Source of the DNA: Escherichia coli
Lineage (GTDB): Bacteria; Pseudomonadota; Gammaproteobacteria; Enterobacterales; Enterobacteriaceae
Assembly: GCF_044324875.1 (NCBI RefSeq)
Contig: NZ_CP172185.1
Length of the DNA stretch: 64,000 bases
Strand: one strand, 5' to 3'
The notes beneath the pieces were generated by a model, which saw nothing but the letters and a program-made list of their open reading frames with translations, was not told the origin of the DNA and ran no database searches. This document shows positions 27,320-29,384 of the stretch, piece by piece. The translations under genes were made by a program, and so were the position numbers. Every line of letters begins with the position of its first letter. Positions within the stretch are counted from its first letter, which is position 1.

Positions 27320-27775
27320 TTATTCAACACCTGAATCCCCCGCCGCTTCTCTCCCCTTTATAAAACGCCCCTTCCGGAATCCAGACCGCTGCAGTGCACG
27401 ACGAAGATGACCGTATACCGTCTTGTCATTCTGCCCCGTCTCTTCTGTAATCTCCGCAATACTTAAACCTCTGTAATACCGGTTCAGTACCGCTCTGCGC
27501 TCTTCCAGCGTCAACACACCTCCGGCCGCTCTCAGATTCAGCATCGACTTATTCAGAATACAGCAGGCCTCTCCGGTAAAAAGAATACGAACAATATCTG
27601 TATACTCATCATCACAGAATACAAAATAATATCTGAATGACCTGCCTGACTGCACCCTTCTTCTGTCTGATATGGCATCTTCTATATATCTGATTCGACT
27701 GCTTACGGTTCCAAATATCTCTCGCAGGGCTTTTTCAAAATAAATATCTCTCGTCGCCAGGATTATATCCAGCAT
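27320..27775 (-). CDS. Small HTH regulator (LuxR / sigma-70-region-4-like C-terminus) downstream of the adhesin gene
   Basis: 151 aa, ATG 27773-27775 with GAGG SD; C-terminal LTLEERRAVLNRYYRGLSIAEITEETGQNDKTVYGHLRRALQR; N-terminal 90 aa unassigned. Confidence 0.6.
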   Translation of the reverse strand: MLDIILATRDIYFEKALREIFGTVSSRIRYIEDAISDRRRVQSGRSFRYYFVFCDDEYTDIVRILFTGEACCILNKSMLNLRAAGGVLTLEERRAVLNRYYRGLSIAEITEETGQNDKTVYGHLRRALQRSGFRKGRFIKGREAAGDSGVE

Positions 27776-27793
27776 CTCTGTACCTCATTATAT

Positions 27794-27813
27794 CCCGGGG
27801 GACTCCCCCCGGG
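27794..27813 (-). promoter_or_regulatory. GC-only hairpin between adhesin stop and regulator RBS (attenuator/terminator candidate)
   Basis: cccggggg-actc-cccccggg: 8-bp G/C stem, 4-nt loop, directly upstream of the regulator SD. Confidence 0.4.
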
Positions 27814-27836
27814 ACAGATATCTAAATCCTGACCTG

Positions 27837-29384
27837 TCAGAACTCAAAATTCACACCAGCATTCCACGATGCGGATGACCCACCTGCAGCAACTGCAACT
27901 TTTCCTGCCACATTCTCTGTGAAACGGTAGCCCACGCCCACCGCAATGGCCTGCTCATCACGGTAACCACCAACGGCTGCTGTCGCGTTAAATTTTCCAA
28001 CACTGTATGGCTGGAAAAGACCTGCCAGTGCCGCGCTCTGGGCTGCACTCTCCCTTAACTCCTTCCGGTTCTCTTTAATCTGCTCCTGCATATTATTCAT
28101 TCTCTCTGTCGCCATCTTCTGCCAGGCTTCCGTCAAATCCAGACGATGACTGTTATTCCTTATCGCTGCTGTATTTGAGGCTATTGCTGCATCCGTCTGC
28201 GCCCTGTTCTTCACAAGCACATCGCTGAGATGTTCTGCCTGGCTTTTCGCTTCTTTACGGGCATCCCGTACACTTTTATCTGTATAAGCCCGGGAAACCT
28301 GAACTGTTTCATCCGCTTTTTCTTTTATTTCATCCTGAAGAGCAAGAGAAGATGCATCCGTATACGCCACCGCTGCCGATGTGCCTGCAATAATATCCCT
28401 GCTGAGTTCATCACGTACTGCTGTAACCTGACTGTCAGTATGAGCACGGGCATCTCTGTATACACCGCCTATCTCACCGCGCAGACTGTCTCCCTCTGCC
28501 TTCAGTTCATCACGTACTGCTGTGACCTGACTGTCAGTATGAGCACGGGCATCTCTGTATACACCGCCTATCTCACCACGCAGACTGTCTCCCTGTGATT
28601 TCAACTCATCACGTACTTTGTTCGTCCCATCCTTTATCTCATCCTGAAGTGCAAGCGCTGTTACATCTGTATACGTCACCGCTGCCGATGTGCCTGCAAT
28701 AATATCCCTGCTGAGTTCAGCATGAACTGTTGAAAGACGTTTATCTGTCTCGTCAATTCTTTCATTCGTCTGCAACAAAAAGACCTGTGCATCATCAAAT
28801 CGTTCATTCAGTTGCCCTACCGTCGCTGCATCTGTGTTATTGATACCATCAGACACATTTATAATCCGGCGGGTTTCCGGTGCTCCTTTGACACTCTCTC
28901 CATATCCCTCAGGCCCGGCACCAACAGATACCACGTTATTTTCTCCCGACACCTGTGAGCCATGGCCCAGAGCTACAGAACTGGTAGAATCCTGCACAGA
29001 TGAAAACGCACCAATTGCCGAGCTCTGACGAGAAGAAATAAGTGACGCTTCTTTTCCTGCAACAGTCCCCCATTCAGAGTCAGCAATAAGTGCATCATGC
29101 CCCAGACTCACACTTCCCGGAGAGTTCACAACATCAGAATTATTCCCCAAAAGCACAGTCCTGTTTGAGTCTAATAAAAAAGAATCATCACCAATCAACC
29201 ATACATTTCTTACTTTATCAATCGAACGGCCAGCTACTGATTCTCCAACAAGAAAGCTATTATCTTCGCCAGGTTCAATCGGTCCGAATAAAATATCCTG
29301 AGCCTGAGCCTGAGCCGAGAGCAGCAGGGCCACACTCACTGCCAGCGCGCTTTTCTTTAAAAAAGCATCACGTCTTTTAAGCAT
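27837..29384 (-). CDS. Trimeric autotransporter adhesin (YadA-like / Eib-like)
   Basis: Start taken at ATG 29382-29384 (track start is TTG); signal peptide [28 protein letters not shown]; repetitive coiled-coil stalk; C-terminal YadA-type anchor [63 protein letters not shown]. Confidence 0.8.
28411..28608 (-). repeat. Near-perfect 99-bp (33-codon) tandem duplication inside the adhesin stalk
   Basis: tcacgtactgctgt... recurs at 28411 and 28510; encodes [31 protein letters not shown] twice; a second repeat family (gctgccgatgtgcctgcaataatatccctgctgagttc) flanks it at 28370 and 28681. Confidence 0.85.

Follow-up and report, generated by a model that had tools for sequence, protein, structure and literature searches.

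An Eib-type trimeric autotransporter cassette of Escherichia coli with a putative regulator gene behind a GC-rich hairpin

The Eib-type trimeric autotransporter adhesins (TAAs) of Escherichia coli are poorly and conditionally expressed. Their genes have been recorded with a characteristic set of neighbors: the GenBank entries for the eibA, eibC and eibD prophages P-EibA, P-EibC and P-EibD of ECOR-9 (AF151091, AF151674 and AF151675, respectively) annotate, in order, a stem_loop, eib, a second stem_loop, orf-156 and orf-60, and phage GER2 has the same gene order. Here we describe a related locus in a 64,000-nucleotide stretch of E. coli DNA (the window; RefSeq assembly GCF_044324875.1, contig NZ_CP172185.1), in which a TAA gene at 27837–29384 is followed by a gene for a 151-amino-acid (aa) helix-turn-helix (HTH) protein at 27320–27775, with all elements of the locus (adhesin, stalk repeat, hairpin and HTH gene) on the minus strand. 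An earlier note on this DNA had held the pairing of such an adhesin with an HTH regulator to be undescribed, a claim that did not survive comparison with the eib records, which annotate the same arrangement, the 151-aa protein being a distant homologue of ORF-156. The locus itself is a new member, as yet unnamed, of the Eib-type TAA cassettes, and we favor the view that it is a horizontally mobile cassette of E. coli whose HTH gene is expressed by read-through from the adhesin gene.

The resemblance to the eib loci extends across the whole arrangement, which comprises an upstream stem-loop, a TAA gene, a second stem-loop, an open reading frame (ORF) of ~150 aa homologous to ORF-156, and a small hydrophobic ORF. 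The membrane anchor of the adhesin is also close to that of EibD, with 47 of the last 58 residues identical (counted from the alignment). Elsewhere the two diverge. DNA similarity to the eib loci is limited to the anchor, and the non-coding DNA has none; the passenger is 31% identical to that of EibD over a heavily gapped alignment, with only generic TAA motifs in common; the regulator is 22% identical and ~16 residues shorter; the hairpin lacks a T-run; and whereas eib genes reside in prophages, this cassette is found mostly in chromosomal islands rich in insertion sequences (ISs). Because passenger homology to Eib is absent, immunoglobulin binding cannot be inferred for this adhesin.

Alignment with Eib, Saa and YadA proteins, which the earlier note had proposed as a check, placed the adhesin with none of them: tblastn and BLASTP identities ruled out all three, leaving only the anchor as Eib-like. 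Saa, the autoagglutinating adhesin of Shiga-toxigenic E. coli, is likewise an E. coli TAA of ~500 aa, but it is 25% identical, has a different repeat unit and is encoded on plasmid pO113, whereas our locus is chromosomal. From work by Paton and colleagues in 2001, Saa is said to vary in size between strains through the copy number of a ~37-aa stalk repeat. YadA of Yersinia has the same anchor, neck and head-stalk-anchor plan but only 24–30% identity to our adhesin; it is encoded on pYV and is under VirF control. Another candidate that we rejected was eYadA of the avian pathogenic E. coli strain TW-XM (Vet Res 2026, PMC12955052), which is also an E. coli 'YadA family' adhesin from avian strains, the host group in which our cassette is common, but which has 338 aa, occupies the cueR-ybbJ locus, is 23% identical over the C terminus only and is followed by an ORF unrelated to the HTH protein. 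A 2025 bioRxiv preprint (10.64898/2025.12.25.695649) gave the names Cla and Yal to E. coli TAA lineages outside Eib that were recovered by BLASTp with EibG, some of them without IgG binding; our adhesin might correspond to one of these EibG-like lineages, which the accessible text names without sequences or accessions to compare. The preprint contains no discussion of a downstream regulator. The closest plasmid relative, an Enterobacter plasmid TAA with 43% identity, was uninformative: an IS3 follows it, with no HTH gene annotated.

The link to the eib loci through the downstream gene rests on protein comparison. The HTH protein aligned with ORF-156C over its full length (aa 2–133; 22% identity, E 4e-5) and matched phrog_6585 as a whole (E 3.3e-4), although no single stretch reached significance by itself, aa 3–75 coming closest. 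By these alignments, it is a divergent member of the ORF-156 family (PHROG 6585), which is annotated as 'unknown function' and of which a profile search of 1.84 billion proteins yielded just 41 representatives. All members with recoverable context lie directly 3′ of a surface-protein gene on the same strand, the upstream partner being a TAA in L017 (numbers with L are our labels for individual loci), a large RTX-type adhesin in L016 and a Ca-binding RTX-like protein in L013–L015. Between the surface-protein gene and the family gene there is a strong hairpin in each of L013–L017 and in the eib loci, which occupies the equivalent position of the spacer in every diverged relative examined. Because this order is conserved among members that share no non-coding sequence, it is the best available evidence for selection as opposed to accident. 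Within E. coli, an Eib-type junction (a YadA-like gene followed by a 'hypothetical protein') occurred in about one third of 167 genomes matched. Our literature search found no paper on ORF-156 function, nor any that mentions 'orf-156' or eibG together with LuxR. In L016 (metagenome contig SRR13991835_371), the ORF-156-like gene is itself followed, at 2699–3208, by a second regulator gene, whose 169-aa product is of the GerE type and has a similar motif near its N terminus, MKVICDNRYFLIG; this suggests a tandem duplication of adhesin-linked regulators at that locus.

The boundaries and distribution of the cassette point to mobility. When we compared the window with 10 E. coli loci by blastn, the shared block, which includes the 5′ non-coding region, adhesin, hairpin, HTH gene and small ORFs, ran on the minus strand from 27085 (27101 in L007) to at least 30213, and the only segment of it that was replaced, in some of the 10 loci, was the head-coding part at ~28980–29300. 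A 2.5-kb region of the locus matched 373 of 5426 complete genomes and never plasmids; in about half of these 373, nothing matched but a short piece of the head, lying in an otherwise unrelated gene. The HTH gene together with the spacer was found in 183 of the 5426 genomes as 320 copies, all at least 99% identical and at most eight per genome, and nearly all sampled matches to the HTH gene were full length. All 988 places matching the locus were chromosomal, and with a single partial plasmid match and every E. coli match chromosomal, we rejected a plasmid origin. The contexts were IS-rich islands by aerobactin or carbamate-kinase genes and a PTS/transketolase island, including that of BEN2908; the tkt1-island and BEN2908 papers contain no description of this adhesin. 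In L007, the copy lies in a lambdoid prophage directly after the tail-fiber genes, which is also where eib genes lie. Poultry isolates accounted for many of the hosts sampled, and human clinical isolates were well represented too. Genomes with several copies include NZ_CP135671.1, NZ_CP033635.1 and NZ_CP080260.1, and strain 135 carries two different cassettes, L004 (disrupted by an IS3, with three stalk units) and L020 (with four).

The adhesin gene encodes 515 aa plus a stop codon and was recognized through Pfam, NCBIfam and Protein Data Bank (PDB) matches. We took its start to be the ATG at 29384, as opposed to the TTG at 29438 used in a program-made ORF list, because AGGAG lies 9 nucleotides (nt) 5′ of this ATG. 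The exact protein has a database entry (WP_395762520.1, named 'YadA-like family protein'), and a near-identical paralogue is encoded in the same 5.75-Mb genome. The YadA-type anchor that the earlier note had claimed for the protein was confirmed at aa 457–515 (27840–28016) by PF03895 (E 3.5e-16) and by YadA anchor structure 2LME, the best PDB match (E 2e-17), although the NCBIfam YadA model (E 3e-20) scored 72.6 bits, far under its curated cut-off of 750. The neck and start of the stalk at aa 173–194 (28803–28868) matched Pfam YadA_stalk (PF05662, E 2.9e-5). The variable head (28890–29300), with repeats of the beta-roll type, matched Pfam YadA_head weakly (E 0.3) and the SadA head fragments 2YO0 and 2YO3 with an E of 4e-7. 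The signal peptide, which we read from the sequence at aa 1–28 (29301–29384), has a basic n-region, a hydrophobic core and an AQA cleavage-type motif, and it is kept in all alleles. Judged by both anchor and passenger, the product is a predicted trimeric autotransporter adhesin of type Vc (YadA-like/Oca).

The head is the exchangeable part of this protein. At least three unrelated head types occurred among the alleles, flanked by an invariant signal-peptide/5′ region on one side and by an invariant distal stalk, anchor and HTH region on the other. Because copies with different heads share these invariant ends, shuffling of heads between copies is possible. At the signal-peptide cleavage region (29297–29316, minus strand) there is also a hexanucleotide repeat, CCTGAG, which encodes Gln-Ala and was reported by Tandem Repeats Finder (TRF) at 3.3 copies. 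The number of QA pairs varies by allele (SAQAQAQ in the window, SSQALA in L008 and SSQAQAQAQAQAQA in L010), and since the repeat is in frame, such variation shifts the AXA cleavage motif and does not switch the gene off.

The stalk contains two tandem units of 99 bp, or 33 aa, at 28619–28521 and 28520–28422 (together 28422–28619), which TRF reported at 28405–28617 as 2.2 copies of period 99 with 93% matches and no indels. The earlier note had described a near-perfect tandem duplication, and an in-frame duplication is indeed present, but 'near-perfect' slightly overstated the case: the units are 91% identical over their full length, with 9 mismatches in 99 positions in the in-frame register, 7 of which fall in the first 25 bases. 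Enclosing the units is a further pair of 30-aa blocks, A (28632–28721) and A′ (28323–28412), which contain LALQDEIK and differ at 11 of 90 bases; as read from the sequence, this outer pair is older than the 99-bp repeat.

That the repeat changes stalk length, as the same note had expected, was evident when we compared copy numbers across strains. Among 12 alleles taken from complete E. coli genomes, the 33-aa unit was present in one, two, three or four copies and the adhesin ranged from 380 to 581 aa, which makes the stalk repeat a real length polymorphism between strains. The four-unit allele of strain 135 (L020) has the same head and chromosomal context as the window's allele. In the larger set, the 99-bp unit was present at 669 places in 174 of the 5426 genomes. 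Variants of the unit are mosaics of a few polymorphic sites, as unequal crossing-over or conversion between repeats would yield, and the copy number would most likely change through unequal homologous recombination between the 99-bp repeats. Because the unit measures 99 bp, a change in copy number never shifts the frame, and the repeat acts on length and not as an on/off switch. Hydrophobic positions within the unit (1/5/9, 12/16/20 and 23/27/31) have an 11-residue periodicity, from which we infer that each unit corresponds to three hendecads and adds ~5 nm while keeping the coiled-coil register. Extra or fewer units would thereby hold the head farther from the cell or closer to it.

Turning to the gene downstream, the earlier note had reported a 151-aa protein with a LuxR/sigma-region-4-like HTH directly after the adhesin on the same strand, and our searches agreed: Pfam Sigma70_r4_2 matched aa 87–130 (E 4e-7). 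The gene, which was characterized through Pfam, AlphaFold2 and PHROG 6585, was intact in all 12 cassettes, including L004, in which an IS3 interrupts the adhesin gene. An AlphaFold2 model built on a 12-sequence alignment (predicted local distance difference test score 76, predicted template-modeling (TM) score 0.73) consisted of a beta-alpha-beta-alpha-beta-alpha-beta domain followed by four helices. The best full-length structural matches in the PDB were RcsB, VpsT, FixJ and EvgA; RcsB, VpsT and EvgA likewise have a receiver-like alpha/beta domain and then a LuxR-type HTH. The HTH alone superposed on sigma region 4 at 0.7 Å, and its four helices are compatible with LuxR-type and sigma-region-4 structures alike, while Pfam GerE gave no match. 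Neighbors in the AlphaFold database (AFDB; TM 0.54–0.74) were proteins of E. coli and Salmonella of ~141–217 aa, most of them 153–166 aa, which are called 'LuxR family' or uncharacterized, and one source (a JGI/IMG, Logan and ENA row) labels a cluster member 'NarL/FixJ family response regulator'.

Two more specific identities for this protein were considered and rejected. NCBI names it a sigma-70 family sigma factor, but it has region 4 only and no region 2, its NCBIfam scores were 16–21 bits against cut-offs of 43–222, and its N-terminal half is alpha/beta. Nor is it a complete, phosphorylatable receiver of the NarL/FixJ kind, as it has four strands instead of five and lacks the acidic pair after beta-1, the Lys and other signature residues. 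The protein is ~16 residues shorter than other family members; D55, with which strand 3 ends, does not vary among family members, and neither do F66 and G68. In the model, a truncated receiver-like domain precedes a LuxR/sigma-region-4 HTH, and because the fifth strand is missing, along with the receiver signature residues other than D55, we read the domain as a pseudo-receiver and the protein as a putative transcription factor that binds DNA independently of phosphorylation.

The junction between the two genes provides the case for read-through. Only 61 nt separate the adhesin gene from the HTH gene, and the hairpin lies within them. As had been noted before, an 8-bp stem of G and C only stands between the adhesin stop codon and the ribosome-binding site (RBS) of the regulator; this core, CCCGGGGG-GAGT-CCCCCGGG at 27794–27813, occurs once in the window (with 0 expected by chance) and in the predicted fold grows to an 11-bp stem with loop GAGU at 27791–27816 (minus strand, −22.4 kcal/mol). 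The Shine-Dalgarno sequence of the HTH gene, GAGG at 27783–27786, lies 7 nt 5′ of the ATG and is unpaired in that fold. Our promoter scan called a single minus-strand promoter-like site, at 29615–29586 upstream of the adhesin, and none between the adhesin and the HTH gene or in the 3′ half of the adhesin gene. With no such site ahead of the HTH gene, its expression is most simply explained by read-through. The short spacer, the exposed RBS, the absence of a scanned promoter between the genes and the presence of a hairpin at this position in the diverged relatives favor this route, and coupling of the HTH gene to adhesin transcription by attenuated read-through, which the earlier note had suggested, is, from these sequence features, plausible. 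A second hairpin, predicted to have 12 pairs with some G-U among them, takes in the adhesin stop codon immediately ahead of the GC hairpin (27821–27848, minus strand), and the 101-nt junction as a whole folds better than shuffled controls (z −2.9). A search of Rfam with the spacer and the 5′ region found no known RNA family, the sole match having an E of 0.72.

Upstream of the adhesin, the AT-rich 5′ region at 29385–29815 (minus strand, 30–34% GC) must contain the adhesin promoter. Over the 135 nt that adjoin the ATG, the cassettes are nearly invariant. Farther out, a segment of ~100 nt (~29520–29630, or −245 to −135 from the ATG) exists in two sharply different allelic forms, and cassettes with either form are nearly identical in flanking upstream DNA and in the HTH gene; the two forms might set different levels of expression. 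At the distal end of the region, the terminator scan called a hairpin with a T-run (29816–29837, minus strand), in the position where the eib records annotate their first stem_loop. We considered as an operator the 16-bp perfect palindrome AATAAGCGCGCTTATT (29588–29603), which lies over the promoter-like −10 and differs in 6 of 12 cassettes, and dropped it because the second promoter allele, which lacks the palindrome, carries the same HTH protein.

Together, these elements suggest how the cassette may work. Transcription would start in the AT-rich region 5′ of the adhesin, with the hairpin at 29837–29816 insulating it from upstream genes, and would pass in turn through the predicted signal peptide, beta-roll head, neck, coiled-coil stalk and four-strand anchor of the adhesin, then the GC hairpin, the HTH gene and one or two small ORFs. 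The HTH gene would most likely be expressed by read-through from the adhesin promoter, and the hairpin would act as a partial stop or as a stabilizer of the 3′ end, giving far more adhesin message than regulator message. The dose of HTH protein would then report adhesin transcription, and the protein could act on its own promoter, or on motility or other surface genes.

The last of these options recalls better-known operons. In pap with PapX and mrp with MrpJ, a hairpin downstream of a major structural gene lowers distal expression, and a small HTH regulator is co-expressed with the adhesin; EcpR is a LuxR-type regulator of the ecp operon. The structural genes of pap, mrp and ecp have no homology to ours, and their regulators come from other HTH families. 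By analogy with MrpJ and PapX, whose operons have the same layout of an HTH gene 3′ of the adhesin behind a hairpin, the protein may be a cross-regulator that is made with the adhesin and acts on other genes, for example by repressing flagellar or other adhesin genes; the LuxR-type EcpR offers a further parallel. A target beyond the cassette would agree with the conservation of the HTH gene at 99% or more in the face of differing heads and a differing promoter segment, and RcsB, which regulates flhDC, is among the nearest full-length folds. However, MrpJ and PapX are of other HTH classes and the protein is homologous in sequence to neither; the proposal is one by analogy, and we regard it as a tentative possibility.

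Several observations weigh against the reading that we favor, in which a mobile Eib-type cassette expresses its HTH gene by read-through. The homology to ORF-156 is remote (22–26% identity), and the full-length PDB structural matches are weak (E ~0.01, TM 0.3–0.4). We found no target site for the HTH protein, the only notable palindrome of the promoter region being the one missing from the second promoter allele. The three hendecads and ~5 nm per stalk unit are predictions from sequence. The hairpin has the GC-rich stem-loop of an intrinsic terminator but no U-tract 3′ of the stem, the tail being UAAUGAGG after the 11-bp stem and AUAUAAUG after the 8-bp core, and the terminator scan did not call it; we therefore describe it as a putative attenuator. 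In nine aligned cassettes the spacer is near-invariant (one position varies, and L008 has one G fewer in a run), so covariation offers no support for the fold. The sequence TATAAT directly 3′ of the hairpin makes an independent weak or leaderless start conceivable. Finally, in the preprint on Cla and Yal (10.64898/2025.12.25.695649), eibG, claA and claB were functional when expressed from a plasmid that supplied just the 168-bp upstream region of eibG, and the downstream gene is thus dispensable in cis for the biogenesis of related adhesins.

Some of these points would be expected if the locus comprised two independent units, with the hairpin marking the end of the adhesin transcript (as a moron-type terminator) and the HTH gene and small ORFs served by a promoter of their own, the two being linked by co-inheritance on prophages and islands. 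In eib, GER2, L016 and L017, a T-run follows the hairpin and makes it a canonical terminator, unlike the hairpin of the window; the TATAAT after the window's hairpin is perfect, with ATATAAT after the hairpin in the distant L013; and related adhesins work when cloned without the downstream gene, as noted above. However, the TATAAT abuts the Shine-Dalgarno sequence, so a transcript starting from it would lose the RBS; no −35 element accompanies it, and the promoter scan called nothing there. In addition, the linkage to an upstream surface-protein gene persists at 20–26% identity and outside prophages, which mere co-inheritance does not predict. We therefore consider two independent units rather unlikely. 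That the 151-aa ORF is a decaying response-regulator remnant without present function is most improbable, for although its receiver-like domain is cut to four strands, it is ~16 residues short relative to the family and the NCBIfam sigma-factor model scores far below cut-offs, none of the 12 cassettes has a broken copy, the DNA of the gene is at least 99% identical across the 183 genomes, a good RBS precedes it, and relatives at ~20% identity keep its length and fold.

Two candidate small ORFs, both identified by reading the minus strand, follow the HTH gene. The first (27253–27330) would encode a hydrophobic peptide of 25 aa, MLNNVSYIVISVLLLLFFVVFVTNG, from a GTG start that overlaps the HTH stop codon; the second (27113–27235) would encode a product of 40 aa if read from its GTG, or of 31 aa if started at the ATG at 27208, and is, like the first, strongly hydrophobic. 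Neither ORF is broken in any of the 12 cassettes, among which the changes are conservative only. The 25-aa ORF sits in the position of orf-60 in the eib loci, which encodes a small protein with a C-terminal transmembrane segment and shares no sequence similarity with either ORF of the window. No small hydrophobic ORF was seen after the HTH gene in the distant relatives L013 and L017.

Outside the conserved block, the cassette is bracketed by ISs: IS100 (IS21 family, istA/istB) and IS1 at 23748–26885 on one side, and an IS1 remnant at 30818–31308 on the other. TRF reported repeats of 23 and 47 bp at 26158–26280, which adjoin the istA end of IS100 and overlap the start of the adjacent IS1 ORF; these are presumed to be IS-end repeats. 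From ~31700 to 44000, comparison with TUM1886 (L001) revealed genes of a CP4-type island, including a ProQ/FinO pseudogene, an inovirus Gp2-family gene and a YeeP-like GTPase gene, together with further island-type genes (DUF932, an antirestriction gene and a RadC/JAB gene). Given these CP4-type neighbors, the cassette sits where such islands often carry surface-protein cargo.

The cassette is present in ~3% of complete E. coli genomes. Its adhesin, in which heads can be exchanged and the stalk differs in length, bears on adhesion, autoaggregation, antigenic diversity and the typing of strains. As a lead, the HTH gene is of more use. A gene of the ORF-156 type has been annotated beside eib since 2000, and in every diverged relative that we could place it is linked to a surface-protein gene. 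It is conceivable, though we hold the idea only loosely, that ORF-156 and the 151-aa protein belong to an unrecognized class of adhesin-coupled transcription factors, each with a pseudo-receiver and a LuxR-type HTH and encoded behind a hairpin 3′ of TAA or RTX genes, whose dose would track the adhesin and would switch other cell behaviors or lock the adhesin promoter ON, and that in genomes with several cassettes they would serve a recombining, co-regulated repertoire of adhesins. The HTH gene could explain the control of Eib-type adhesins.

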